Below are positions 7,597 through 61,261 of a stretch of DNA of 64,000 nucleotides, piece by piece. Origin of the DNA: Nanobdellota archaeon. Lineage in GTDB: Archaea; Nanobdellota; Nanobdellia; Woesearchaeales; JAHIVG01. The notes under the pieces are model-generated. The model did not search any database. It saw nothing but the letters and a program-made list of their open reading frames with translations, and was not told the DNA's origin. Location of the stretch: assembly GCA_043806015.1 (NCBI GenBank), contig JAZDHH010000015.1:13796-77795 (forward strand), in the 5' to 3' direction. The translations under genes were made by a program, and so were the position numbers. Positions within the stretch are counted from its first letter, which is position 1. Every line of letters starts with the position of its first letter.

Positions 7597-8103
7597 ATGC
7601 GCGCCTTCATCGCCATCGATTTGCCGCAGGAAATGCATCCCGCGCTGCAGCAGATTCAGGAGCAGATCAAGGCCTTCGGCTCGTTCTCCTTCCCGAGGAG
7701 CTTCCACCTCACGCTGTTCTTCCTGGGCGAAATCTCCGAACAGCAGAAAGAGGACGTCGTGAAAAAGCTGTCGACGGCCCGCTTCTCCCCGTTTTCCTTC
7801 ACCCTGTCGGAGATCGGCTTCTTCGACAAGAGGGTGGTGTGGGCGGGCATCCGGCCTGAGGAAGAGACCATCAAGCTGCAGAAGGCCATCTGCTCTGCCC
7901 TCGGCATGCGGGATGATCGCTTCCATCCGCACATCACGCTCGCGAGGATCAAGCAGGCGAAGCCTGGCCTCAAGGAAGCGTGCGAGGAGATGAGGCTGCC
8001 TTCTGAAGAAATCCGCATCGAGAAATTCACGCTTTATAAAAGCACGCTGCTCGCTGACGGGCCGAGATACGAGACGATTGCCAGCTTCGAAGGATTTAAA
8101 TAA
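7597..8103 (+). CDS. thpR: RNA 2',3'-cyclic phosphodiesterase (LigT/ThpR, 2H phosphoesterase)
   Basis: Two H-x-T/S-x motifs (HLTLFFLG and HITLARI). The length of ~168 aa is typical. Confidence 0.85.
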   Translation: MRAFIAIDLPQEMHPALQQIQEQIKAFGSFSFPRSFHLTLFFLGEISEQQKEDVVKKLSTARFSPFSFTLSEIGFFDKRVVWAGIRPEEETIKLQKAICSALGMRDDRFHPHITLARIKQAKPGLKEACEEMRLPSEEIRIEKFTLYKSTLLADGPRYETIASFEGFK

Positions 8104-10403: not shown

Positions 10404-11176
10404 GCCGGCTCGCAATAGAACCGCTCGAAGGCGGCGAGCTGCTTCAGGTTGCCCTGGAAGGTGAAGGTGATGTCGCTGTCCCGCGCTGCCTCGGCCTCGA
10501 GGGGGGTCCACATGACCATGCTGCTCGCTCCCCGCACACAGAGGAGGGCATAGATATCTCGGCAGCTGAGTATCCTCTCGCAGGTGATGGCCGACCATTC
10601 CGCATATGTCTCCGGATGAAGAGACATGAGCCGGGTGTCGTTCCGCTTGGTCATGATTTCAACATGGAAGGCCTCTGAGGTTATCGGCACGTTGATGCGC
10701 AGGTTGAGCGTCGGGAACTCCCTGACCCTGGCGACGTATTTGCTCCGGATGATCCAGAAAGGATCCAAATACGCGGATTTATACCGGACGCTGTCAACGA
10801 TGTACAGGCTCTGGTTGTCGGCGAGGTATCTCACGTGGTAGTCGAACGCGCCGTTGAGCTCAGGCAGCTGCTCGGCATAGGCCTCGAGGATGTCATCCCG
10901 ATACCAGCCGGAGAAGTTGTGGTAAAGCATGGCCGGCGGGGTGATGTCCTCTTCGGGCTGCACCTGAGGCAGGGGGAAGATGTCGATGATGGTGGCAGGC
11001 TCGGAGGGCTGTCCTGAAGGCGTCAGGTTCGTCGCGTTGCCCGGCTGCGGAGGCGTCAGGTTCGTCAGATCGTTCACGGGAAGCGGTGCCTTCGGCCGCA
11101 GGAAGAAATAATAGCCCGCGCCAGCGGCAAGCAGCAATACTGCTGAGGCGATAATAATGAGCATCAGCTTTTTCAT
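10400..11176 (-). CDS. secreted or membrane-anchored hypothetical protein with N-glycosylation sequons
   Basis: N-terminal signal/TM segment and NLT/NAT/NLT sequons. Translationally coupled to maf. Confidence 0.5.
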   Translation of the reverse strand: MKKLMLIIIASAVLLLAAGAGYYFFLRPKAPLPVNDLTNLTPPQPGNATNLTPSGQPSEPATIIDIFPLPQVQPEEDITPPAMLYHNFSGWYRDDILEAYAEQLPELNGAFDYHVRYLADNQSLYIVDSVRYKSAYLDPFWIIRSKYVARVREFPTLNLRINVPITSEAFHVEIMTKRNDTRLMSLHPETYAEWSAITCERILSCRDIYALLCVRGASSMVMWTPLEAEAARDSDITFTFQGNLKQLAAFERFYCEPA

Positions 11177-11254
11177 GAAGCGAGAATGCGGTTTTTTTCT
11201 TTATAAATCTATCTGAACCAAACATTTTTATACCTTCCCTGAGCACTAGGAAGC

Positions 11255-11983
11255 ATGGGGGCCCGCATCCTGGTCGATGAGCAAGGAAGGCAGTTCTACG
11301 TGAAAAACCCGAAGGAGGACTTCCATACCCAGTACGGCTACGTGAGCGCCGAGGACCTGAAAAAGCAGGCCGGGGCGGACGTGAGCACCAACACCGGCAA
11401 GGGGTTCACCCTGCTCAAGGCCTCCTTCATCGACGGCTACATGAAGATAGCGCGCGCCCCCCAGATCATCCCTCGCAAGGACATCGCGCTCATCATCGCA
11501 GAGACCGGCGTCGGCAAGGACAGCATCGTGGTCGATGCGGGCACAGGCTCAGGCGCGCTGGCAATCTCGCTCAGCCGCATCGCGAAACAAGTCGTGAGCT
11601 ACGAGCTCCGCGAGGACTTCGCCAAGGTGGCGGAGAAGAACAAGGCATTCCTGGCCGTGGACAACCTGACCATCAAGCAGAAGGACGTCTACGGAGGCAT
11701 CGACGAGAAAGGCGTCGACCTCATCACCCTCGACCTCCCCGAGCCCTGGAAAGCGCTCCCGGCGGCGGCCGAAAGCCTCGCTGTCGGCGGCTTCCTCGTC
11801 TCCTTTTCCCCGACCATCCCGCAAGTCATGGACTTCGTCAAGGCATTGGCGCCGCATTTCGTGCATCTCAAGACTTCCGAGCTCATCGAACGCGACTGGG
11901 ATGTCGCGGAGCGGAAGGTGCGGCCGAGGAGCATGACCATCGGCCACAGCGGATTCCTGACATTCGCAAGAAGACTGAGGTGA
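11255..11983 (+). CDS. trmI: tRNA (adenine57/58-N1)-methyltransferase TrmI (Gcd14 family)
   Basis: SAM-MTase motif VVDAGTGSGALAISL and TrmI-like N-terminal domain. TATA-like elements at 11207-11245 in the divergent promoter region. Confidence 0.85.
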   Translation: MGARILVDEQGRQFYVKNPKEDFHTQYGYVSAEDLKKQAGADVSTNTGKGFTLLKASFIDGYMKIARAPQIIPRKDIALIIAETGVGKDSIVVDAGTGSGALAISLSRIAKQVVSYELREDFAKVAEKNKAFLAVDNLTIKQKDVYGGIDEKGVDLITLDLPEPWKALPAAAESLAVGGFLVSFSPTIPQVMDFVKALAPHFVHLKTSELIERDWDVAERKVRPRSMTIGHSGFLTFARRLR

Positions 11984-12216: not shown

Positions 12217-12780
12217 ATGCTCAAGCGAGAGCTCCGCGTCCTCGGCATAGACGACACGCCTTTCGACAAGCATCGCGACAAGACAGCGACGCTCATCGGC
12301 ATCGTCTACCGGGGCGGCTCCTTCCCTGATGGACTGCTCTCCGCCACCGTCCGAGTCGACGGGACAGACGGGACGGCGGTCATCGCGCGGATGGTCAACC
12401 AGAGCAAGTTCAAGGAGCAGCTCCGCGCCATCCTCCTGAAAGGCATCGCTGTCGCGGGCTTCAACCTCATCGACATCAGGGCGCTCTCCCGGAGGACAAG
12501 GCTGCCGGCCATCGTGGTGATGAGACATATCCCGAAGAGCGATGAGATGGCCTCTGCCCTCAATAAGCTCGGCCTTTCATCTCAGGCCGCCATCCTAAAC
12601 CGGGTCCCGAAGATCCATCGCGCCGGGAAGCTGCTGTTCCAATGCGCGGGATGCTCGCAGCAGCATGCCGCCGAGGTCATCGCGCTCACGACCACGCACG
12701 GCAACCTGCCGGAACCGCTGCGCGTCGCACACCTCATCGCCAGCGGCATCACGCTGGGCGAGAGCAGGGGGAAGGCCTAG
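12217..12780 (+). CDS. DUF99/UPF0215 family protein
   Basis: N-terminal …LRVLGIDDTPF… is characteristic of archaeal DUF99 proteins. Confidence 0.55.
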   Translation: MLKRELRVLGIDDTPFDKHRDKTATLIGIVYRGGSFPDGLLSATVRVDGTDGTAVIARMVNQSKFKEQLRAILLKGIAVAGFNLIDIRALSRRTRLPAIVVMRHIPKSDEMASALNKLGLSSQAAILNRVPKIHRAGKLLFQCAGCSQQHAAEVIALTTTHGNLPEPLRVAHLIASGITLGESRGKA

Positions 12781-12941
12781 CGCTTCTGTGGTTCCCGAAA
12801 AATTCTTTTTCATTACGTCCTTCTAGAAAGGAATTTTTCTTTCGAAGAGCAGTTTATTCACCCCCGCAGATTCTTTTTCCGGATTTCTCTCCGACAATGA
12901 TAAGAAGAATCGATACAGCGGACTTCTTTGAGGTGATAGTG

Positions 12942-14261
12942 ATGAAATGGATCGTCATGTTCCAATTCATGTTTTTGTTATCATCAATAGCCGTAGCCAC
13001 CGACCACGTCGTCATCAGCGAAGTGTTGTTCTGGGCGAACGGCACGGACACCGGCGGCGAGTTCGTGGAGCTCTACAACCCGACCGAGCAGGACGTCGAC
13101 ATCTCGGGGTGGACGCTCGCGACCGAGAGCTCTGAGACCGATGCGACCATACCGGAGAATATCACCCTTCTCGCGCACCATTTCTACCTCATAGCCGACG
13201 CGGGCTGGGACAGCCTCAAGGACAACCCTGACTGGCCGAGCGCGGACCATGAGGAGACCATCACGCTGTCCAATGCCGATTCAGGGATCGCCCTCGTCTC
13301 GCAAAGCGATATCGTCGACGCTGCAGGTTGGGGAGACCCGAGTGGAATAGAAGAAGGCAAGTATGAGGGCGCTCCCTTCCCCGAGATGGCCAAAGCCTGG
13401 AGCCTTGAACGGAAGCCCGGCATCGAGGATCCTGAAGGGGGGAATGGCATCGACACGGACGAGAATTCCGCAGACTTCCTCCTGCGCATCCCTGAGCCGC
13501 AGGGCTCTGGAAGCGAAGAGACCCCTTTTGCGCCGGACACGGTCAACAACTTCAGCATCCAGTTCACTGTCAGCGGAAATGGCGTGGACATAATCTCCTT
13601 CAGCATTGAAGATGATGGCGCGGGGGAAGGAATCCAAGCGATGCCCTTCCCGGGCGAAAGCCGCAACCTGAGTATCAACGCGACCGTGCTCCATGCCGAG
13701 AACGTCACGGTAAGCTTCCTCAACACCACGGTCTTGCTCACCCCCCTCAACGAGACCCACTGGAGAGGGAAGGTTGCCCTCCCGTTCTTCTCTGCGCCGG
13801 GCAACCATTCTCTCTCCATATCCGCCCAGGGCGCTGAAGGGAATGACACGAACCAGACCCGGATCGATGTCCTTGAGGTCGCCGCCCTTGGCCTCGATAG
13901 CGCGGGCATGACCTTCGCAGCCTCCCCGGGTGAGAGCTTCACCGCCTGGGGAGACGATGACATCACCACCGATGACCGGCCGACTGTCCGCAACATCGGC
14001 AACGTGCCGCTCGACCTAAAGGCCAAAGGAACGAGCTTCAGCAACGGCGAGGCAGTGCTTCCGCCCGAGATATCCGGCTTCAACCTGAACATGAGCCAAA
14101 GCTTCACGCCGCTCTCCGAAAGCTGGGCAACGGTCGAGCTGGGCATGGCCTTCGGTGACATGCTGACCGCTCCCTTGAGCGTCAGGCTTGATCTTCCCGC
14201 TGACGCGGAAGGAGGCACTTACATCGGCAGCATGCTGCTCTCCGGCGTCAAGGCAGAATGA
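12942..14261 (+). CDS. secreted lamin-tail-domain (LTD) surface protein
   Basis: Signal peptide MKWIVMFQFMFLLSSIAVA. LTD signature VVISEV…GEFVELYNPT…DISGW. Multiple N-x-S/T sequons. GAGGTGA RBS before ATG 12942. Confidence 0.65.
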   Translation: MKWIVMFQFMFLLSSIAVATDHVVISEVLFWANGTDTGGEFVELYNPTEQDVDISGWTLATESSETDATIPENITLLAHHFYLIADAGWDSLKDNPDWPSADHEETITLSNADSGIALVSQSDIVDAAGWGDPSGIEEGKYEGAPFPEMAKAWSLERKPGIEDPEGGNGIDTDENSADFLLRIPEPQGSGSEETPFAPDTVNNFSIQFTVSGNGVDIISFSIEDDGAGEGIQAMPFPGESRNLSINATVLHAENVTVSFLNTTVLLTPLNETHWRGKVALPFFSAPGNHSLSISAQGAEGNDTNQTRIDVLEVAALGLDSAGMTFAASPGESFTAWGDDDITTDDRPTVRNIGNVPLDLKAKGTSFSNGEAVLPPEISGFNLNMSQSFTPLSESWATVELGMAFGDMLTAPLSVRLDLPADAEGGTYIGSMLLSGVKAE

Positions 14262-26329: not shown

Positions 26330-26480
26330 AGTGCTCCTCCTTAATTAGCTTTATTACAAATTGATTGATAATTACCCTTTTTTAGACGGGATTATGAGCT
26401 ATGATTTTATAAGAAACAATAATAATATTATTAATTGATTTATAATATTAGTAAAATATTTATACTTGTTTGCGCTCACT
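26330..26480. promoter_or_regulatory. AT-rich (~80% AT) divergent intergenic promoter island
   Basis: A run of TTATAA/TATTA-type elements in a GC-rich genome, lying between divergent genes at 26318 (minus) and 26612 (plus). Confidence 0.45.
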
Positions 26481-26611
26481 TTCCCCATGAACACGAAAGA
26501 GTTCCTTTCCGTCGACTTCCATGACATATGGAACTGGATTCTGGGAATCATTGCCATCGGCCTGCTTTGGTGGGGGATCAGCACCATCGTCAAGGTGATG
26601 AGCGTGAAGCC

Positions 26612-27541
26612 ATGAAAGAACGCTATTTCCTCCTCCGGGAAGGCGAGGAGTTCGCCTTCGCCCCCGCGATGCTGCTGCCGACGCCGGAAAGCGCCCAAAT
26701 CCTCACGAATCCGACGAGGATGCAGATCCTCAGGCTGCTCGCGAAACGCGAGATGTACCCCGCAGAGATCGCCCAGAAGATCGGGATGCACGAACAGAAG
26801 GTCTACTACCACATCCGGCAGCTCCTGAACAGCGGAATCCTCACCATCACCGAGAAGACCGAGATCAGGGGCACGGTGGCGAAGCGCTTCAGGCCCGTGT
26901 CCATGAACTTCTGCCTCAGCCTCGGCAGCGACTGGAAAACAATGGTGAATCCCTTCGGGGCGAAGAAGGACGCTCCAGAGTCGAGATTCCTCGAGCCGTT
27001 CGTCATGGACAACGCCCTCAACGCCTCCATCGTCGTCGGCAGCCCGGACCCGCACGGCCCGCTCAAGGCCCGGGCGAGGGACAGCCATTATGCCATCGAG
27101 CTCGGCCTCTATCTTGGCCAGTTCTGCCAGACAAAGACTCACTTTTCCGCTATGCTGGACGTCGACGTGCGCCTCTCCAGCGACCCGGGCAACCTCATCC
27201 TTGTCGGCGGCCCGATCACCAATCTCATCATCGCCCAGTTCAACGACAACCTGCCGGCGCGCTTCAGCGACAAGAAACCCTGGGAGATCATCGGGCCGAG
27301 CGGCAAGCATTACATCGAGGAGACCACCGGCATGGTCGCCAGGATGCGCAATCCGCTCTTCCCGAAGAGCTGGATACTGGCCCTGGCAGGCATACGGTCT
27401 GTCGGAACGAAAGCTGCGGTTTTGGCCTTGGCCAAGGGCGTCTCCGCTGATTTCAAGGGCCAGGAGCCCTATTGCCATGTCATCAACGGATTTGACCTTG
27501 ATGGAGACGGGAGGGTAGATAGCTATGAGATACTGGACTAA
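26612..27541 (+). CDS. ArsR-like winged-helix transcriptional regulator with large C-terminal domain of unknown function
   Basis: N-terminal …TNPTRMQILRLLAKREMYPAEIAQKIGMHEQKVYYHIRQL… HTH. GGTGA RBS before ATG 26612. The antisense 359-aa ORF was rejected. Confidence 0.6.
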   Translation: MKERYFLLREGEEFAFAPAMLLPTPESAQILTNPTRMQILRLLAKREMYPAEIAQKIGMHEQKVYYHIRQLLNSGILTITEKTEIRGTVAKRFRPVSMNFCLSLGSDWKTMVNPFGAKKDAPESRFLEPFVMDNALNASIVVGSPDPHGPLKARARDSHYAIELGLYLGQFCQTKTHFSAMLDVDVRLSSDPGNLILVGGPITNLIIAQFNDNLPARFSDKKPWEIIGPSGKHYIEETTGMVARMRNPLFPKSWILALAGIRSVGTKAAVLALAKGVSADFKGQEPYCHVINGFDLDGDGRVDSYEILD

Positions 27542-27572
27542 GACTCACTTTTCCGCTTTGAGGTGGTGCTAG

Positions 27573-28226
27573 ATGCTCGGTTTTTTCCGTAAAAGGGATG
27601 CTGAAGAGATGTCAAGCCGGGTCGAACAGGCATTTTCCAAGGTGGACACGGACCTCCGCCATGTCCAGACGTGGATCAACCATGTCCAGGACAGGCATCA
27701 GGAGCTTGAGATGGCTCATCAGGACCATCTAAGCATCACCCGGAGGGATGTCCAGCACCTGAACAGCTGGGTGCAATACCTCCATAAGCACCTTTCCGGC
27801 CTCCATGGGGGGGTGAAGCAGCTCTCTGAAGGCCTAAAAATGGTCCAGGAAAGCCAAAACAGGCTTTCACAAAGGCTTGAAAGCCTTGAGCAGAAGTCTC
27901 ACTTTTTAGGTTTGGAACAGCCAAAACAGGCATTGGCGCCTCCCAGGATGGTGCCTAAAGGGCCGGATACGGGAATGGTGCAACTCCATAACGTGGATCT
28001 TCTTTCACCATCAGAACGCGATGTGGTCAGGGTCCTTGTCCATAGCCCGGAGCCGTTGGATTACCATGCCTTGGCATCCAAGCTCGGCCTCAATTACACA
28101 ACAGTCAAGAACCTCATCTATCGCATGAAGAAGAAAGGTTTTGTGATCAGGAACCGGCTGAATGCGCAGGGCGAAAAGGAATTTTTCCTTGACCAGATGT
28201 TCCGCATCCGGGTCAGCGGCAGATAA
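27573..28226 (+). CDS. coiled-coil protein with C-terminal MarR-like winged HTH
   Basis: Heptad-rich N-terminal half. C-terminal …LSPSERDVVRVLVHSPEPLDYHALASKLGLNYTTVKNLIYRMKKKGFV…. Confidence 0.55.
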   Translation: MLGFFRKRDAEEMSSRVEQAFSKVDTDLRHVQTWINHVQDRHQELEMAHQDHLSITRRDVQHLNSWVQYLHKHLSGLHGGVKQLSEGLKMVQESQNRLSQRLESLEQKSHFLGLEQPKQALAPPRMVPKGPDTGMVQLHNVDLLSPSERDVVRVLVHSPEPLDYHALASKLGLNYTTVKNLIYRMKKKGFVIRNRLNAQGEKEFFLDQMFRIRVSGR

Positions 28227-28265
28227 TAAATGGATGGAAATGCATAGAAAACTGGGATAGAAAAC

Positions 28266-28620
28266 GGGTGTCACCATAGTGTCACTTTGGTGACATAGAC
28301 GAGGAAAATGGCGTTTTGCCCCGGGATTCCGCAAGCAGGCTTCCGCCTGTTTTCACGGATATCTCTCTTCTCCGTCGGAGAATCCGTTCACGCCCGCGAA
28401 AAATGACTTCCTGCCTCAGAAGGATGCGCGTCACACCCGTGTCACTTTGGTGACATAGACGACAAAAGGCCTTTTTGGTGACACGAGTGACGTGACACGT
28501 CACCGATGACACGCTCCCGGTGACAACGCCTTTTATCGACGAGAAATAGAAAATGCTACGCGAGAGCGGAAAAGAGCCACCGACGATGTCACCACGGTGT
28601 CACTTTGGTGACATAGACGC
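28266..28620. repeat. three copies of a ~33-bp repeat GTCACnnnnnGTGTCACTTTGGTGACATAGACG (cores at 28279-28301, 28439-28461, 28597-28619), spaced ~159 bp apart, plus extra GTGAC/GTCAC half-sites at 28478-28525
   Basis: Read directly from the sequence. The core contains the perfect palindrome TGTCAC-TTTG-GTGACA. The region is non-coding and lies between convergent gene ends (28226 and 28600). Confidence 0.75.
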
Positions 28621-29106
28621 TGTTGAAAAACGGCGCAGGGCCATAAAAACCTTGTTCGCGAGCGCCCGCGGCGTCGCGCGCGTGCTGTCCGCGACCAGTA
28701 CGCGATGCTTCCCAACCCTTGCTTCATGCCCACACACATCGAGCAGTTCACAATCCAGGTTTTCCTGGATTTTTTCAGGGCTGTATCTACGGGCTGAGAG
28801 GCGCTTGCGGAGGATATCGGTCTGGCAGCGCAGGAGGATGCAGGCGTCAAAGAAATGGGGGGGCAAGGTCTGGCTCAGATGTCCTTCAACGATGTAGCCG
28901 CCTTTGGGCAGGTTCGCCCTGAGGCTTTTCTCCAGCGCCTTGGGATCGATGACCATGCTCTCTCGCTTGGAGTCATAGGCTTCCGCGAGCCTGTGGCGCT
29001 TGATGTATTGGGTGAGATGGATGACTTTCGTCCCTAGCAAAAGTGAGAGCTCGTCAGCCAGTGAGCTCTTGCCGACCCCGGGCGTGCCGGTTATCGCGAG
29101 GCGCAT
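28600..29106 (-). CDS. Fap7/AK6-like P-loop kinase (putative adenylate kinase involved in small-subunit rRNA maturation)
   Basis: MRLAITGTPGVGKSS Walker A, ~168 aa, NMP-kinase-like. Confidence 0.7.
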   Translation of the reverse strand: MRLAITGTPGVGKSSLADELSLLLGTKVIHLTQYIKRHRLAEAYDSKRESMVIDPKALEKSLRANLPKGGYIVEGHLSQTLPPHFFDACILLRCQTDILRKRLSARRYSPEKIQENLDCELLDVCGHEARVGKHRVLVADSTRATPRALANKVFMALRRFSTASMSPK

Positions 29107-47392: not shown

Positions 47393-47493
47393 AGGCCCCG
47401 CCTCCGTAGCATAGTAGCCATTGCGGCGGACTTGTATATTGCCGGAGAAATCCGCAGGTCGAGGGTGCAACTCCCTCCGGAGGCTCTTTGCCC

Positions 47494-50948: not shown

Positions 50949-51992
50949 ATGGCTCGCATCCTCTACGGTGTTGGCGGGCAGGGCATGGGCCACGCCACGA
51001 GAAGCGCTACAATCATCAAAGAGCTCGGGAAAGAGCATGAGCTGGTGATCGTCTCCGGCGGCCGCGCTTTCGCCTACCTTTCAGAAAAGTTCCCGAACGT
51101 AAAGAAGGTGCACGTCCTGCACCACAGCCAGAAAAACGACCGCATCCTGAGCCCCGAGACCTTCGCATCGAACCTGGTCTCGATCCCCAGGTACTACCGC
51201 TCCTTCCAGCGCGTGTCTTCCATCATCCGCTCCTTCAAGCCGGAGATGGTGCTCTGCGATCTCGAGCTGTTCACCGCGCTGGCCGCGAAAAAATCCCATC
51301 TGCCGCTGCTCAGCATCGACAACCAGCACATCCTCACCAAGACGAGGCTCGGCATCCACCAGCAGGCATCCGGTCTCGCATTGAAGTTCCTCATCCGTTC
51401 AATGGCGCCGCGCGCCACGGACTACATCATCACCACCTTTTTCCTGCCCAAACGGAAAGCCCTCAACGTGCATCTCGTGCCGCCCATCGTGCGCGAATCC
51501 ATCATCCGGGCGAAATGCTCCATCGGCAAGCATGTCCTGGTCTACCAGACATCGAAGACCCACACCACGCTCCTCGAAGAGCTGCAGAAGATCGATGAAC
51601 AGTTCATCGTCTATGGCTACGACCGAATAGGCCGACAGAAGAACTTGATCTTCCGTAAATTCAACGAAAAGCAATTCTTCCGCGACCTCGCAAGCTGCAA
51701 GGCGATCGTGACTAACGGCGGCCTGAGCCTCATCGGGGAAGCGGTGTATCTCAAGAAGCCTGTATTCTCCATGCCCATCCGGGATGACTTCGAGCAGTAC
51801 GTCAACGCGTACCATATCCAAAAGAAGGGGTATGGGCTCTCCAGGCCGGTCTTCACGAGACGCGCCTTCCTGCATTTCATGAGCCGCCTGGACAGCTACA
51901 AGGCCGCGCTTAGGGAGCACCGTCAGGACGGCAATAGGCTCCTATTGGAGAAGCTCCGCGCCTGGATCACGCTGTACGCAGGAGACGCCTGA
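50949..51992 (+). CDS. GT-B glycosyltransferase (MurG/GT28-like)
   Basis: N-terminal GGQGMGH Gly-rich loop and a C-terminal UDP-sugar-binding-like region. Confidence 0.65.
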   Translation: MARILYGVGGQGMGHATRSATIIKELGKEHELVIVSGGRAFAYLSEKFPNVKKVHVLHHSQKNDRILSPETFASNLVSIPRYYRSFQRVSSIIRSFKPEMVLCDLELFTALAAKKSHLPLLSIDNQHILTKTRLGIHQQASGLALKFLIRSMAPRATDYIITTFFLPKRKALNVHLVPPIVRESIIRAKCSIGKHVLVYQTSKTHTTLLEELQKIDEQFIVYGYDRIGRQKNLIFRKFNEKQFFRDLASCKAIVTNGGLSLIGEAVYLKKPVFSMPIRDDFEQYVNAYHIQKKGYGLSRPVFTRRAFLHFMSRLDSYKAALREHRQDGNRLLLEKLRAWITLYAGDA

Positions 51993-53751
51993 GCGTCTCG
52001 ACGATATCCTTCCCTTCCGCGCGGCCGCGCAGCGTTTCCATCGCCTTGCCGACGAGCGCATTGAATGCCATGCCCGCGTGCTGATTGATGATCTCTTTCA
52101 GCCCGACCTCCAGCTCTTCCGGCGATAACGTCCTGTAGCCCATTGGATCCGGATGCTTCCCCTGCCCGATCTGCACCAAGAGCTCGAAAACAGCGTCGCG
52201 CGTGATGGCCCCCTGGTCCCAGAGCGCCACCAGCTGCTGGCCCTGCCCGAGGGGGTCGACCTCGATGTTGAAGCGACGCTTGATCTCCTTCCCCGAATTG
52301 AGGAAAAAATCCGCGAGCGCGTTGAGCGGGATGTTCCGGTACGCTGCCTGCAACTCTTCCAATGGCAAGTCATCCGCCAAGACAAGCTTCGTCATCTCGT
52401 GCGAAAGCCCGAGCTTCTCGTAGTGGGCGAAACGCTGCTCATAGGTCAGCGGGAGCGTGACCAGTTCCGGGTGAGGCACGACCGGCTTGGTGTCTGTCTC
52501 CGGATACATGCGAGCCGCGCCAGGGATGGGTCTGAGGTAGCTCGATGTTCCGTCAGGATTCGCCTTGCGTACTTCCTGGGGGGTGCCTTTTTTCAGCAAG
52601 GCGCAATGATCGCGCACTGCCTGGAGCGCCCGGAGAGCGCGCCAGCTCTCGCCGAGGACGATGATGAAGCCAGCGTCATCATGGCAGCCGAGCGACGCCC
52701 TGACAGCGTCGACCTCTTCCAGGGTTATGCCGTAGCCGGGGAGCTCATCCGCGTGCATCAGGCCGCCGATGCCGGTCTTGACTTTCGCGACGTCCGAGAA
52801 TTCGGTGCCGAGACGCCTGCCGGGCTGGATCAGCTGCCCGAAAATGCCCTTTGCCTTGCCGCATCGCATGCCGAAGACAGATCCGTTTGCCTGGAGCACC
52901 TTCTGGACCATCTTCGAGCCGGTATGCATCATCGACGATGTCACTTCCTCCGCCGGGCCAAACGATACGTCTGCGAGACATTTTCTCAGGGGGATCATGT
53001 TCTGCTGGCGCTGCACCTCATAATCCACGAGCGTCGGAAGCAGCCGGAGGTCCTGCGCGCCCTTGATCTCGATGCGGTTGCCGCCTTCGATGGAGATGTT
53101 GACATCCTGCCGTATGGTGCCGATGCCACGACGGACTCTTCCGGTGGAGCGGAGGAGCATGCCGAGCTGATGGGCGACGCTCTTGCATTGCTCTGGCGAT
53201 GTGATGTCCGGCTCGGTCGCGATCTCGATGAGCGGTATGCCGAGGCGATCGAGCCGATAGGAGACACTGTCCTGGCGCTGCTCGATGATGCGGCCAGACT
53301 CCTCCTCGATGCAAAGCGTGGCGATGCGGATGCTGGCGTCCGGCGTCTTCAGTATGCCGTTCCTCGCGACGAGGGCTGTGCGCTGGAAGCCCGAGGGGTT
53401 AGATCCGTCGATGACAATCTTGCGCATGATCTGTATCCGGTCGACCACGCGCATATGCAGCAGCTTGGCGAGCTGCAGCGCCACGCCCAACGCCTCGGGA
53501 TTAAGTTCGTGCGGAGGCTCGTCGTCAAGCTCGACCAGGCAGGTCGTGTCCGGATAGAACTCGTAGACAAAGGTGCGCTCCCTTCCGGTTTCATGCATCG
53601 CGGCCTCATCGACAACCCCGAGCTCGCCGGACACCGCCCGGAGCTTCCGGACCACCTTGCCTGGCGGCGGATCGTCGCGGAGCGCGCTCGGGCAGCCGCA
53701 GAACAGCTTCTTCGTCGCGAGCTGCTGGTGGATCTCGAGGCCGATTTTCAT
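51967..53751 (-). CDS. gatE: Glu-tRNA(Gln) amidotransferase subunit E (GatE)
   Basis: MKIGLEIHQQL N-terminus, 594 aa, GatB/E fold. Confidence 0.9.
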   Translation of the reverse strand: MKIGLEIHQQLATKKLFCGCPSALRDDPPPGKVVRKLRAVSGELGVVDEAAMHETGRERTFVYEFYPDTTCLVELDDEPPHELNPEALGVALQLAKLLHMRVVDRIQIMRKIVIDGSNPSGFQRTALVARNGILKTPDASIRIATLCIEEESGRIIEQRQDSVSYRLDRLGIPLIEIATEPDITSPEQCKSVAHQLGMLLRSTGRVRRGIGTIRQDVNISIEGGNRIEIKGAQDLRLLPTLVDYEVQRQQNMIPLRKCLADVSFGPAEEVTSSMMHTGSKMVQKVLQANGSVFGMRCGKAKGIFGQLIQPGRRLGTEFSDVAKVKTGIGGLMHADELPGYGITLEEVDAVRASLGCHDDAGFIIVLGESWRALRALQAVRDHCALLKKGTPQEVRKANPDGTSSYLRPIPGAARMYPETDTKPVVPHPELVTLPLTYEQRFAHYEKLGLSHEMTKLVLADDLPLEELQAAYRNIPLNALADFFLNSGKEIKRRFNIEVDPLGQGQQLVALWDQGAITRDAVFELLVQIGQGKHPDPMGYRTLSPEELEVGLKEIINQHAGMAFNALVGKAMETLRGRAEGKDIVETLRRLLRTA

Positions 53752-58309: not shown

Positions 58310-58585
58310 CTTTTCAGGGAGGTGGATAGCGGGGTCATTATTAAACCCTGCCTTCTTTTTATAGGGGATTGCCCCGAAGTTCTGTTTCCATAGGAAACGA
58401 TGGGGTGTTTTTTAGCCGTTTTTCCACACTGAGGGCTTCCCTTTATATGGGAAAGAGGTCTTAAGGGGCGGTTCCACGAGAAACTGAGGTGCCACCCTTT
58501 CTTGAAGCTATAGCTTGAAGAGCATTTAAAAACAGCAGGGTTTATAAAGGAGTAATCCTTTCTGTTTAAAAAGGGGGTGTGAACC

Positions 58586-59128
58586 ATGGGCAAGAAAGAA
58601 ATCCAAGTGGTCAACATCGTTGTCAGCACGAATCTCAAGCATGATATCCCGCTCGAAAAGATGGCTGCGACGCTCAGCAACACGGAATACAACCCCGAGC
58701 AGTTCCCCGGCCTGGTCATCCGCATCAAGGATCCGAAGACCAGCGCGCTGATCTTCTCCTCGGGCAAGATCGTCTGCACCGGCGCCCGCTCCATGGATAA
58801 GGTCGAGGAGAGCATCAAGAAGATCATCAAGAGTCTCGAGAAGATCAACGTCAAGATCACCATCAAGCCGGATATCAAGATCCAGAACATCGTGGCTTCC
58901 GGAACCGTCGGCATGGACCTCAACCTCAACGTGCTCGCCATGAAGCTCGACAACACGGAGTACGAGCCAGAGCAGTTCCCCGGCCTGGTCTACAAATTGC
59001 CTGAGGCAAAAGCGACCTTCCTGCTGTTCAGCAACGGCAAGGTTGTCTGCACCGGCACCAAGAGCGAAGAGGAAGTGCACAAGGCACTCGATAAGCTGAT
59101 CGAGAACCTGAAAAAAGTCCTCAAGTAA
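58586..59128 (+). CDS. tbp: TATA-box binding protein
   Basis: Two direct TBP repeats (…NIVVSTNLKHDIPLEKMA… and …NIVASGTVGMDLNLNVLA…). TATA-like elements at 58441-58563. Confidence 0.95.
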   Translation: MGKKEIQVVNIVVSTNLKHDIPLEKMAATLSNTEYNPEQFPGLVIRIKDPKTSALIFSSGKIVCTGARSMDKVEESIKKIIKSLEKINVKITIKPDIKIQNIVASGTVGMDLNLNVLAMKLDNTEYEPEQFPGLVYKLPEAKATFLLFSNGKVVCTGTKSEEEVHKALDKLIENLKKVLK

Positions 59129-59197
59129 CCGGAATATTTTCGTTTTTCCACCCTCATCCATATAAAGAGGTGAATCATCCCCTAGTGGGAACCCTGC

Positions 59198-61261
59198 ATG
59201 GAAGACGACGTCATGGAGATGGAGACCGCGAAGCCCGCCTTGAACGCGGCAGAGCAGATCCAGAAGTTCCAAGAATTCTTCGAGAGCCGCATGATGACCG
59301 AGCTCCTCGAGCAGGTGCGCAAGGGGCACACGTTCATCGTCATCGATTTCAACGAGATCTCCAAGCATGACATCGGCCTCGCTGAAGAAATCTTGGAATA
59401 TCCTGACGAGGTGATAAAAGCGGCCGAGCTCGCGGTGCTGCAGTTCGACCTGCCGGCGGAGCTCAAGCATTTCCATGTGCGTTTCCGCAACCTGTCGCAG
59501 AACGCGCAGGTCATGATCCGCGACATCCGCAGCAAGCACATCAACAAGTTCATCAGCATCCAAGGCGTGGTGCGCCAGAAGAGCGAGGTGCGACCCCAGG
59601 TGACGACCGTGCGCTTCGAATGCCCGAGCTGCGGCAACGTCATCACCATCCTGCAGCTGGACAGCTCCTGGAAGGAGCCGAGCCGATGCTCCTGCGGCCG
59701 CAAGGGCAAGTTCAAGCAGCTCTCCAAGGAACTCGTGGATGCACAAGGCCTCGTGGTCGAGGAATCCCCGGAAGACCTGACGGGCGGCGAGCAGCCAAAG
59801 CGCATGAACATCTTCCTCAAGGACGATCTCGTCTCGCCGCTGTCAGAGAAGAGGACCAACCCCGGAACCAAAATCAGGATCGCGGGCGTTGTCAAGGAAG
59901 TGCCCATCTTCACCCGCATGGGGACCAAAAGCACAAGGTTCGACCTGCTCGTCGAGGCCAACGGCGTCGAGGCGATCGCTGAGGACTTCTACGAGATCCT
60001 GATCACACCGGAAGAGGAGACGCAGATCAAGGAGATCGCTGCCGACCCGAAGGTCATGCAGCGGCTCGTCAACAGCTGCGCGCCATCCATCTACGGCCAT
60101 GACCGCGTCAAGGAAGCGCTGCTCCTGCAGCTCGCAGGCGGCGTGCACAAGACCAGGAGCGACGGCATGACCACGAGGGGGGACATGCATGTCCTGCTCG
60201 TCGGCGATCCCGGCGCTGGAAAAAGCCAGCTCCTCAAGCGCGTCAACCAGATCGCGCCGAAGTCGAGGTATGTGAGCGGAAAGGGCGCCAGCGGAGCCGG
60301 CTTGACCGCCTCTGTCGTCAAGGACGAGTTCCTGAAAGGCTGGAGCCTCGAAGCAGGGGCCTTAGTGCTCGCGAACAACGGCGTGTGCTGCATCGACGAG
60401 TTCGACAAGATGGACGTCGAGGACAGAGCTGCGATGCATGAAGCACTTGAACAACAAACGGTCTCCATAAGCAAAGCAAACATCCAAGCAACGCTCATCG
60501 CCCGCACTACCGTGCTCGCTGCCGCGAACCCGAAGCTCGGAAGGTTCGATCCTTACGACCTGCTCGCCAACCAGATCGACCTGCCCAGCACGCTCATCAA
60601 TCGTTTCGACCTCATCTTCCCCATCAAGGACCTTCCGGACAAGGATACGGACACCAAGATGGCCGCCCACATCCTCAGCCTGCATCAGAACCCGATGTTC
60701 GAGGAGCCGGAGATCTCCACGAATCTGCTGAAGAAGTACATCTCCTATGCGCGACAGCGCATCTCCCCGGTCCTTACCGACAGCGCCATCGAAGAGATCA
60801 AGGACTATTATCTCAAGATGCGGGACAAGAGCTCGACCGAGGAGGGGGGCATCAAGGCCGTGCCTATCAGCCCGCGCCAACTCGAAGCCCTGGTGCGCCT
60901 CGCAGAAGCTTCTGCAAAGCTCAGGATGAGCGACAAGGTGACCAAGCGGGACGCCAAACGGGCCATCGACCTGCTGCACTACTGCCTCCAGCAGATCGGC
61001 ATCGATCCGGAGACCGGAAAGATCGACATTGATCGCATCGCCACAGGGGTGCCTGCGACCGAGCGCAGCAAGATCGTCTCCATCCGGGAGATCATCCAGG
61101 ACCTCGAGAACCAGCTGGGCAAGACAATCCCCATCGATGACGTCATCAAGCTCGCCGCCGAGCGCGGCATCACCGAGGAGAAGGTCGAAGAAGCCATAGA
61201 AAAGCTCAAGCGCTCGGGCGATATCTTTGAGCCGAGGCACGGCTTCATCTCGAGGATTTAA
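59198..61261 (+). CDS. mcm: MCM replicative helicase
   Basis: Zn finger CPSCG…C, Walker A GDPGAGKS, Walker B/arginine finger regions, 687 aa. Confidence 0.95.
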   Translation: MEDDVMEMETAKPALNAAEQIQKFQEFFESRMMTELLEQVRKGHTFIVIDFNEISKHDIGLAEEILEYPDEVIKAAELAVLQFDLPAELKHFHVRFRNLSQNAQVMIRDIRSKHINKFISIQGVVRQKSEVRPQVTTVRFECPSCGNVITILQLDSSWKEPSRCSCGRKGKFKQLSKELVDAQGLVVEESPEDLTGGEQPKRMNIFLKDDLVSPLSEKRTNPGTKIRIAGVVKEVPIFTRMGTKSTRFDLLVEANGVEAIAEDFYEILITPEEETQIKEIAADPKVMQRLVNSCAPSIYGHDRVKEALLLQLAGGVHKTRSDGMTTRGDMHVLLVGDPGAGKSQLLKRVNQIAPKSRYVSGKGASGAGLTASVVKDEFLKGWSLEAGALVLANNGVCCIDEFDKMDVEDRAAMHEALEQQTVSISKANIQATLIARTTVLAAANPKLGRFDPYDLLANQIDLPSTLINRFDLIFPIKDLPDKDTDTKMAAHILSLHQNPMFEEPEISTNLLKKYISYARQRISPVLTDSAIEEIKDYYLKMRDKSSTEEGGIKAVPISPRQLEALVRLAEASAKLRMSDKVTKRDAKRAIDLLHYCLQQIGIDPETGKIDIDRIATGVPATERSKIVSIREIIQDLENQLGKTIPIDDVIKLAAERGITEEKVEEAIEKLKRSGDIFEPRHGFISRI

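Follow-up and report, generated by a model that had tools for sequence, protein, structure and literature searches.

We analysed, by computation throughout, a 64,000-nucleotide stretch of chromosomal DNA (here called the window, 58% GC) from a metagenome-assembled genome (MAG) of the Nanoarchaeota, a DPANN lineage, and in it a repeat array in the 373-bp gap (28227-28599) between two converging genes, a 217-codon gene on the plus strand (27573-28226) and a 168-codon gene on the minus strand (28600-29106). The array begins right after the stop codon of the 217-codon gene, whose product, P0001, is a coiled-coil/winged helix-turn-helix (wHTH) protein and the presumed binder of the array, and an array of half-sites likewise follows the homologous gene in 12 of 12 other related loci with readable downstream DNA. 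Our best explanation, a tentative one that we would place a little short of even, is that the gap is a cis-acting array of cognate sites for the adjacent 217-amino-acid (aa) protein, the two forming one nucleoprotein complex that would serve as a centromere-like element or a membrane tether. We found no curated family in Pfam, no structure in the PDB and no paper in the literature that describes the protein family or the array, and both are undescribed so far.

Anatomy of the array

The array contains three copies of a 38-nt repeat, GTCACnnnnnGTGTCACTTTGGTGACATAGACG, at 28270-28307, 28430-28467 and 28588-28625, spaced 160 bp and then 158 bp from start to start, 82-100% identical over the 38 nt and sharing the layout GTCAC-N5-GTGTCACTTTGGTGACATAGACG; a first-pass annotation of this DNA had thus placed its three repeats correctly. 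Its perfectly palindromic core is also real: the 16-bp palindrome TGTCACTTTGGTGACA stands at 28280, 28440 and 28598, and with up to three mismatches allowed it matches five times in 64 kb, always within the gap, against 0.19 matches expected, a count that none of 100 shuffles reached. The extra half-sites that had been noted at 28478-28525 are present as four GTGAC (28478, 28487, 28492 and 28520) and one GTCAC (28499). Fourteen of the 81 GTGAC/GTCAC pentamers in the window fall within 28269-28613, and the same 345 bp hold 11 of its 19 GTGACA/TGTCAC hexamers, the mean for the window being 0.12 hexamers per 400 bp. The description of the gap as non-coding holds for the 373 bp between the converging ends but not for the third repeat, which is partly coding: the stop codon (28600-28602) of the minus-strand gene, which encodes a nucleotide kinase, lies inside the palindrome, and the last ~8 codons overlap the repeat.

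Because two kinds of element are found here, half-sites and a second motif that we call box B, the 33-bp repeat of the window is best described as a composite of half-site, palindrome and box B. Copy 1 (28268-28309, plus strand) consists of GTCAC at 28270, the palindrome TGTCAC-TTTG-GTGACA at 28280-28295 and box B TAGACGAGGAAAA at 28296-28308. Copy 2 (28428-28469, plus strand) has GTCAC at 28430, the palindrome at 28440-28455 and box B TAGACGACAAAA at 28456-28467, and its 17-mer GTGACATAGACGACAAA is the same as that of both copies in the related locus L001 and of the copy in another, L015. Copy 3 (28581-28625, plus strand) has CGACGATGTCACC ahead of it and consists of GTCAC at 28588, the palindrome at 28598-28613 and a box-B-like TAGACGCTG. 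Between copies 2 and 3 lie a central cluster of six half-sites in both orientations (28476-28526: GGTGACAC, AGTGAC, GTGACAC, GTCACC, ATGACAC and GGTGACA) and a free-standing box B, TTATCGACGAGAAATAG (28533-28549, plus strand), which matches the single box in most relatives' arrays. The composite is present once or twice in relatives and is tripled in the window at intervals of ~160 bp; half-sites number 14 in the window array and up to 23 among the arrays.

Half-sites are 5-6 bp long and are arranged both as palindromes and as direct repeats. The palindromes take the forms TGTCAC-N4-GTGACA (window and L001), GTGAC-ACGT-GTCAC (L001 and L007) and GTGTCA-YRA-TGACAC (L008, L011 and L022-L025), and neighbouring half-sites most often stand 11 bp apart if they point the same way and 9 bp apart if they point opposite ways, about one helical turn. 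Box B, with the consensus ACAT(C/A/T)GA(C/G)GA(G/C/T)AA(A), is fused to a half-site. Its strict pattern occurs in one to three copies in 10 of 13 subfamily arrays, the other three holding close variants, and it is 12-fold denser in the arrays than in the surrounding 175 kb. It lies on the gene strand in the window, L001, L007, L008 and L026 and on the opposite strand in L011 and L022-L025, and this occurrence on either strand, together with the 12-fold enrichment, favours recognition at the level of DNA over that of RNA. A reading of ATGATGA cores as a C/D-box small RNA was rejected, as inspection by eye found no D boxes and no consistent strand. A lone composite-like site, CATCGACGATGTCACTT (box-B-like plus half-site), lies at 52930-52950 within a gene for a GatE-like protein (51967-53751). 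Both 28581-28593 and the beginning of the L023 array look similar to this site, which could be due to chance.

The protein family and the arrays behind its genes

P0001 begins with MLGFFRKR and ends with SGR. Its predicted structure (AlphaFold, AF2, with a confidence score, pLDDT, of 72) comprises a single helix of ~107 residues (2-108), a disordered linker (110-142) and a wHTH domain (146-205). Pfam gives only weak matches to generic MarR/TrmB/sigma-r4 helix-turn-helix (HTH) and coiled-coil models, all below the gathering thresholds, and the 14 family members checked match generic HTH models only. Foldseek against the PDB returned only generic winged helices of the MarR/Fur/ORC2 type, and a profile search against PDB sequences returned a generic archaeal wHTH protein (2d1h) and coiled coils; no match to ParB or to ribbon-helix-helix proteins appeared in the profile, Pfam or fold searches. 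A 'Nanoarchaeota archaeon' MAG (84-kb contig) encodes the identical protein, annotated there as hypothetical, and members of the family are named in their sources as 'hypothetical protein' or 'winged helix-turn-helix domain-containing protein'.

Searching for homologues in two rounds yielded 14 family members at 25-50% identity, in whose alignment the recognition region LNY(G/T)TVKN.IY..RKKG, the motif GEKEFFL and the C-terminal SGR are invariant. An exhaustive search with a hidden Markov model returned 515 clusters (50% identity) at E<=1e-3 and 202 at E<=1e-10, nearly all of them 190-350 aa long and aligned end to end. The named members all come from MAGs of Nanoarchaeia, Nanobdellota or Woesearchaeota, and a metagenome scan with peptide patterns confirmed at least four family loci. 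IMG/VR, PLSDB and the INPHARED phage records hold no relatives of the 217-aa protein. Among 158 representatives the N-terminal consensus is M-(G/F/L)-(F/W/L)-(F/L)-x-(K/R)-K-K-K, with positions 2-5 hydrophobic in 51-78% and positions 6-9 basic in 39-51%; F or W is found within residues 2-7 in 80%.

The 12 lineages compared (L001, L005, L007/L009, L008, L011, L021, L022, L023, L024, L025, L026 and L027) span genomes of 27-28% to 58% GC, and their arrays begin 0-60 nt past the stop codon of the homologue. L001 has two copies of GTGTCACACTAGTGACATAGACGACAAA and about ten further GTGACA sites, with 14 of the 19 hexamers of the locus inside 270 bp; L005 has TGTCAC and GTTACA sites that reach the contig end; and the 176-bp gap of L007/L009 is packed with GTGACAC and GTAACA. 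Half-site arrays also follow the gene in L008, L011, L021, L022, L023, L024, L025 and L026, and L027 is described below. The genes on either side are less constant. Upstream of the family gene stands an ArsR-type gene, NFACT or an unrelated 201-aa gene, and downstream of it, depending on the locus, the Fap7-type kinase gene or, as in L007/L009, an unrelated gene for 317 aa. Since the flanking genes vary while the array stays, the conserved unit is the gene together with the array directly 3' of it.

We also scanned one genome per species, 185,579 species in all but not the source MAG among them, for the pattern TGTCACNNNNGTGACATAGACG. In the relative GCA_018816705.1 the only matches are the two L001 copies, at the orthologous locus, and outside that genome the pattern turns up once in a second Nanoarchaeota MAG (L015) and five times in bacteria, as isolated, chance-like matches. 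The composite motif is thus confined to one locus in the window and in one relative's genome, and is not a generic dispersed hairpin. The first-pass annotation had named two observations that would tell against its array, a motif dispersed through the genome and a lack of conservation in related genomes; the composite motif proves locus-specific in the relative's genome, and arrays stand in all 12 readable loci.

The half-site changes with the recognition helix of the coiled-coil protein. Helices of the form LNYTTVKNL(I/M)Y go with GTGACA, LNYGTVKNR(V/L)Y with GTGACA mixed with GTTACA/GTAACA, NIIY(S/G)LRKKK with ATGACA, and NIIC/NAIY with GTAATT(AC) plus one GTGTCAYGATGACAY, while in a sister subfamily the helix GHSINTVRVNMN.LKKKG goes with the word CATTGCAATG at an 11-bp phase. 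(The P-values of the pentamer enrichment counted each site on both strands, and their ranking alone was used.) The sister subfamily, of which one member was looked at (L027, on a 1.84-Mb contig), has a different C-terminus, EKIKKMYNL..L. Its neighbourhood contains the same genes (Fap7, ArsR-S_layer_C, PGM, nucleotidyltransferase and GlmS) in a rearranged order, its array starts 4 nt past the stop codon and is built from CATTGCAATG/CATTATAATG at an 11-bp phase, and 12 of the 14 occurrences of these words in the 20.8-kb locus fall within 300 bp. The other HTH protein at hand is the ArsR-type neighbour, encoded in the window at 26612-27541. Its helix, MHEQK(V/I)YYH(I/V)(K/R)QL, is essentially invariant in six of six loci compared, L027 included. 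The half-sites vary with the helix of the coiled-coil wHTH protein whereas the ArsR helix is fixed, which makes the former protein the likely reader of these sites; adjacency and co-variation together make it highly probable, in our view, that the 217-aa protein binds the array. The earlier suggestion of a binding-site array for the adjacent wHTH proteins accordingly survives for the product of 27573-28226, whose homologues the array follows and with whose helix it co-varies, and loses ground for the ArsR-type protein with its invariant helix. Box B is conserved although the half-sites drift, and may therefore have a reader of its own that is conserved as well; it is speculation that the invariant ArsR-type neighbour is that reader.

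Proposed function, known systems and rival explanations

As we picture it, the protein would dimerise or oligomerise through its ~107-residue N-terminal helix and its C-terminal wHTH domains would read the 5-6-bp half-sites (GTGACA in the window); the ~11-bp phasing would let many protein copies load next to one another along a single face of the DNA helix, with the ~35-residue linker giving the wHTH domains reach to the phased half-sites. The outcome would be a single large nucleoprotein complex at one chromosomal address, which would mark or anchor the chromosome without a motor, as a centromere-like element or membrane tether, and the N-terminal hydrophobic/basic motif (M-G/F-F/W-F/L-x-K/R-K-K) would make the contact with the membrane or a partner. 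With its phased sites, 14 in the window and as many as 23 elsewhere, the array stands nearer to centromeres (parC, tubC and segS) than to operators, and the conserved aromatic/basic N-terminus on a coiled-coil DNA binder recalls the bacterial tethers RocS and RicO, which link specific chromosomal DNA to the membrane with no motor of their own. We favour a centromere-like function in anchoring or segregation, which we hold to be somewhat less likely than not and with more doubt than the reading of the gap as a site array; a regulatory or titration role comes after it and a role in replication third.

Several known systems invite comparison. TubR, itself a winged HTH protein, on tubC and ParR on parC are small binders that coat sites phased at ~10-12 bp near their gene and so build one large partition complex. 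Phased iterated sites beside the presumed binder's gene are common to them and to our array, whereas tubC and parC are plasmid-borne, lying upstream of and autoregulating a par operon that encodes the motor (TubZ, ParM), and TubR and ParR are without the long coiled coil of the 217-aa protein. The matS site of the E. coli Ter macrodomain is GTGACRNYGTCAC; it has the same half-site pentamer, GTGACACGTGTCAC occurs in L001 and L007, and MatP also has a coiled coil. However, the half-sites are spaced by 4 nt here and by 3 in matS, the commonest palindrome here has the opposite arrangement (TGTCAC-N4-GTGACA), MatP has a ribbon-helix-helix/four-helix domain, and matS sites are dispersed over ~800 kb, so that the resemblance is probably coincidental. 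RacA of Bacillus subtilis binds short GC-rich inverted repeats, ram, and fastens the chromosome to the pole. KfrA of IncP and IncU plasmids is reported to be a coiled-coil DNA-binding accessory of partition complexes (PMC7821693, PMC7783346). Both resemble the 217-aa protein in joining an HTH head to a long coiled coil, although in reversed domain order and with no homology detected, and their sites differ from ours, the ram sites being spread over hundreds of kb and the KfrA site being the operator of its own promoter.

RocS of Streptococcus pneumoniae (PMC11500499) and RicO of Staphylococcus aureus (bioRxiv 10.64898/2026.03.06.710092) are reported as DNA-to-membrane chromosome tethers with an HTH, a coiled coil for oligomerisation and a short terminal membrane element, an amphipathic helix; RicO reads a specific motif, ricS, at particular chromosomal positions. 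The likeness lies in the combination of a DNA-binding domain and a coiled coil with no dedicated motor gene, and would extend to the terminal element; the 217-aa protein has the predicted coiled coil and wHTH, and its short N-terminal motif would be compatible with membrane targeting. The order is mirrored, however, the archaeal protein having its putative membrane motif at the N-terminus and its wHTH at the C-terminus, and the sites here, in archaea, are gathered immediately downstream of the gene in a single array of 150-400 bp. As to homology, none of the 14 family members has a Pfam or PDB match to DUF536 or to the RicO DNA-binding domain.

SegB of the Sulfolobales is a site-specific binder whose centromeric sequence lies beside its own operon, one full segS consisting of three repeats (PMC12139799). 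Three archaeal repeats adjoining the presumed binder's gene are what the window has too, but segS is upstream of segAB, SegB works with the ParA-like SegA, for which no counterpart was found in the window, and SegB has ~51 further shorter sites around the chromosome. The SegB fold, moreover, is ribbon-helix-helix and not wHTH. With the ParABS and SegAB systems generally the window and the related loci share an iterated binding-site cluster adjoining the presumed binder's gene. Such partition loci have a Walker-type ATPase gene (ParA or SegA) in one operon with the centromere binder, which is of ParB (HTH plus CTPase) or ribbon-helix-helix type. Membership was rejected: no ParA/CbiA/MinD-type Pfam match was found in the ~50 open reading frames (ORFs) of the window, nor among the genes called at 10 related loci, and the protein is a coiled coil with a MarR-like wHTH, without ParB or ribbon-helix-helix match. 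In sum of these comparisons, the system would work like the HTH/coiled-coil chromosome anchors and iterated centromeres, and falls outside ParABS/SegAB, RocS/RicO homology, iterons and origin recognition boxes (ORB).

Several points weigh against our best explanation. Uniqueness within a genome was tested with the long composite motif, in the genome of a single relative. At L015 tblastn detects no family gene beside the single repeat copy, which lies at a contig end. The assignment of the binder depends on adjacency and co-variation, and shared ancestry could partly cause the latter. Membrane binding by the N-terminus is suggested by composition, and eight residues would be short for an amphipathic helix. 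Pfam finds no ParA-like or other motor gene nearby among the window ORFs; position relative to the origin varies, the array being 4.4 kb from cdc6 in L007/L009 with no cdc6 in the window; and the half-site is not significantly avoided elsewhere (8 observed, 11.5 expected). Avoidance of GTGACA genome-wide was considered and left unused: the 3.6-fold deficit against base composition becomes non-significant against a fourth-order Markov expectation (11.5, with 8 seen). As for the L015 copy itself (GTGACGTGTCACACTAGTGACATAGACGACAAA, 7780-7830, minus strand), it lies beside the Fap7 3' end with ~200 nt remaining to the contig end, and may reflect either loss or decay of the gene or an assembly break at repeats.

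Some of the same evidence would also suit an ordinary transcription factor, the array serving in autoregulation or datA-like titration, as a roadblock to read-through, or in the control of an antisense promoter. Its wHTH is of the MarR/TrmB/sigma-r4 type usual in regulators, the sites sit where converging transcripts meet and overlap the 3' end of the kinase gene in the window and L001, and coiled-coil HTH proteins of the KfrA type autoregulate, according to the accessible part of one report (PMC7821693). We nevertheless consider this unlikely. Neither the apparent promoter of the operon (26400-26480) nor any other position in the 64 kb that looks like a promoter has a half-site, the eight remaining hexamers of the window being isolated and mostly intragenic; 14 to 23 half-sites are far more than known operators have; the array is without a strongly AT-rich promoter-like block such as the one upstream of the operon; and the downstream gene differs between lineages, which leaves no common regulated target. 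A replication element, either an Orc1-independent origin with a wHTH initiator or a fork barrier like RTP/Ter, seems improbable. WhiP acts at Sulfolobus oriC3, and in RTP/Ter a wHTH gene lies beside its sites; phased iterated sites beside a winged-helix gene recall RTP/Ter and iteron origins alike. AT-rich relatives have 200-500 bp of non-coding DNA after the array, unusual in compact genomes, the L027 gap holds tandem repeats (15 bp x4 and 14 bp x3) with A/T tracts, and the array of L007/L009 lies 4.4 kb from cdc6/polD. But tblastn with the L007 Cdc6 finds no Cdc6 in the window, that is, within -28/+36 kb of the array, and Pfam finds no Orc1/Cdc6 in its ~50 ORFs; reading the gap reveals no AT-rich unwinding stretch in this 58%-GC window; and the L007 gap is just 176 bp, filled with half-sites. 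Archaeal origins of the Orc1/Cdc6-ORB kind have ORB or mini-ORB boxes (TTCCA..GGAAA plus a G-string), as a rule inverted about an AT-rich unwinding element, and an orc1/cdc6 gene alongside. An ORB-like pattern has no match in the array (the 64-kb stretch has just two weak ones, at 58.4 kb, a result equalled by 11% of shuffles), and in L007/L009 a separate ORB-bearing repeat region adjoins cdc6, the L007 box TTCCAGATGAAATGAAGGGGG lying upstream of cdc6 and apart from the array. The GC-skew comparison that the first-pass annotation had proposed shows no inflection at 28 kb, and its origin-like option is disfavoured; sites in both orientations also fit a polar fork barrier poorly.

An RNA-level element, whether as transcribed hairpins (terminators, or 3' untranslated region (UTR) elements for stability or autoregulation) or as a small RNA gene, we regard as very improbable. 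Terminators or REP-like palindromes would be expected to show a stable GC-rich stem with a T-run after it, at many gene ends throughout the genome. Single-stranded, the palindromes can fold into modest hairpins with stems of 6-9 bp (-6 to -9 kcal/mol; z-scores of -2.6 for copy 3 and -3.5 for copy 1), and in several relatives the array precedes the first T-tracts and so is probably within the 3' UTR. Yet a bacterial-type promoter/terminator scan found no terminator-like site in 28227-28600 and no promoter in the gap, the hairpins are weak and are followed by TAGACG and not by a T-run, and in L021 and L026 the T5 tracts lie ahead of the array. Rfam has no match in the gap, at gathering thresholds over the whole window (where three tRNAs elsewhere are the only matches) or at E<=5 over 27900-28900. 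Box B and half-sites lie on either strand relative to the gene among lineages, variably spaced direct-repeat half-sites form no hairpins, and the motif does not recur at the ends of other genes; the set of hairpin terminators once proposed for this gap is not supported. Least likely of all is a repeat family or the remnant of a mobile element, be it REP/BIME-like, transposon-end binding sites, an integrated plasmid iteron origin or a degenerate CRISPR-like array. The repeats are indeed palindromic, extragenic, regularly spaced and set between converging genes, but they occupy a single locus in 64 kb and in one relative's whole genome; the ~50 neighbouring ORFs include no transposase, integrase, rep or cas domain and no ParA; searches of IMG/VR, PLSDB and phage records returned no relative of the protein; and the neighbourhood is conserved and housekeeping across lineages of 28-58% GC. 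A CRISPR array has at least four near-identical 24-48-bp repeats, unique spacers of ~26-72 bp and usually cas genes and a leader. Here there are three copies of 82-100% identity at 122-bp intervals, one of them full of half-sites, with no cas domains in the scanned ORFs, and the first-pass annotation had rightly excluded CRISPR. A plasmid iteron origin, with 17-22-bp direct repeats in tandem next to a rep gene on a mobile replicon, was also rejected, given a housekeeping chromosome, the absence of plasmid, phage or IMG/VR relatives, and long repeats that are ~160 bp apart and not tandem.

If the gap is indeed a site array for its neighbour, a wider claim would be that gene and array are a new, motor-less centromere or membrane-anchor system widespread in the Nanoarchaeia/Woesearchaeota (DPANN), in which one protein would read a species-specific iterated site beside its own gene and, by way of its N-terminal motif and coiled coil, fasten the locus to the membrane or division apparatus. 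We rate this wider claim as rather unlikely. Were it true, this would be the first candidate segregation element for the ultra-small, host-dependent DPANN archaea, on whose chromosome organisation and partitioning our literature search found no study. For these tiny, mostly uncultivated cells with genomes of roughly 1 Mb it is a concrete, testable candidate, and the position of the array directly behind the gene allows it to be predicted from the sequence of each genome. The pairs of helix and half-site (GTGACA, GTTACA, ATGACA, GTAATT and CATTGCAATG) form a natural specificity series for a winged-helix domain, and the module stays a conserved genome landmark even if its function is regulatory.

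Neighbouring genes and other features

The minus-strand gene at 28600-29106 encodes a 168-aa nucleotide kinase of the Fap7/AAA_18 type (Pfam AAA_18, E=5.6e-24). A Fap7-type kinase gene is also beside the array in L001, L008, L011, L025 and L015, and L007/L009 have another neighbour. The kinase gene often, though not always, adjoins the array, and it probably stands outside the system. Upstream of the 217-codon gene, and probably co-transcribed with it, lies the ArsR-type gene (26612-27541, plus strand), to whose product Pfam assigns an ArsR-type HTH and an S_layer_C-like domain. The C-terminal domain, a weak match to Pfam S_layer_C, is highly conserved and uncharacterised (SPDPHGPxKARARDSHYA ... 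GFDxDGDGxxD). The ArsR-type gene adjoins the family gene in most lineages, the sister subfamily included, but not in L005, L007/L009 or L021, and its membership of the system is uncertain. At the head of the same apparent operon is a 42-codon ORF (26487-26615, plus strand) that overlaps the ArsR-type gene by ATGA, which puts the ArsR start at 26612. Its product has a hydrophobic central stretch, MNTKEFLSVDFHDIWNWILGIIAIGLLWWGISTIVKVMSVKP, and judged by eye is possibly a membrane peptide; an equivalent 42-aa gene is called in L002-L004, and whether it belongs to the system is likewise uncertain.

Between this operon and a divergent nucleotidyltransferase gene lies a block of ~130 bp that reads as very AT-rich in the 58%-GC genome (26340-26470 in the window, 8700-8830 in L001). 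A palindromic stretch, GATAATAATATTAT.AATTGATT.ATAATATT, is conserved between the window and L001, a TTTATA box is also present, and the block probably serves as promoter of the operon and includes an operator.

A second short motif, (C/G)TCTCACTTT(T), resembles the left arm of the palindrome plus its spacer (TGTCACTTTG). It occurs in the window at 26475-26483, 27542-27552 and 27896-27906 (plus strand) and 29039-29049 (minus strand), in L001 at 8839, 8963, 9493, 9902 and 10324 (plus) and 11386 (minus), and in L027 at 11392-11403, where the copy in the gap adjoins a TATA-like TTTAAATA. In the window alone the motif is not significant; in L001 five matches stand against 0.57 expected (0 of 100 shuffles), all at most 2.6 kb from the array and directed towards it. 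Some of these sites are just ahead of start codons or at the operon leader, and others are within coding DNA, spelling KSHFL in the family gene and ELSLL in the kinase.

Other repeats were seen in the window and in relatives. The 1.15-kb gap of L027, very long for such genomes, contains beyond its CATTGCAATG array four 15-bp tandem units, TTTTTAnnCCAGGAn, with phased A/T tracts (11119-11178) and three 14-bp units, AGTCCCTCAGGAAA (11239-11292). Upstream of cdc6-polD, L007 (12560-13000) and L009 (12590-13180) have a 400-600-bp region of degenerate repeats of ~50, 74 and 99 bp (TGTTATGC..TGCTGTTGCTATC), which is followed in L007 by the canonical ORB-like box (13115-13135) and probably represents the origin of the chromosome. 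The repeat units are more numerous in L009 than in L007, and a called ORF of 222 aa runs through them. The sole origin-like candidate noticed in the window is a set of three or four TTCCA-type boxes, loosely mini-ORB-like, at 58386-58405, 58421-58440, 58472-58491 and 59141-59154 (TTCCATAGGAAACGATGGGG, TTTTTCCACACTGAGGG and TTCCACGAGAAACTGAGGTG), which is not significant (11% of shuffles). These boxes lie in a 275-bp divergent region upstream of an ORF (58586-59128) recognised by eye only as a probable TATA-binding protein (TBP), just ahead of the MCM gene (59198-61261).

The rest of the window carries largely housekeeping genes: those for RPA, RadA, primase, glutamine synthetase, ABCE1, NFACT, GlmS, a sugar nucleotidyltransferase, PAN and TldD/PmbA, and further for TyrRS, ribosomal protein S2, S-adenosylmethionine synthetase, adenylate kinase, TruD, GatD/E and MCM. 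At 47400-47486 a tRNA-Thr(TGT) is called with 87 nt, and its Rfam match spans 86 nt where the model has 71 positions, which suggests that it carries an intron or insertion. A 539-aa ORF at 12642-14261 contains a Lamin Tail Domain (PF00932, E=1.6e-15) and probably encodes a secreted or surface protein.

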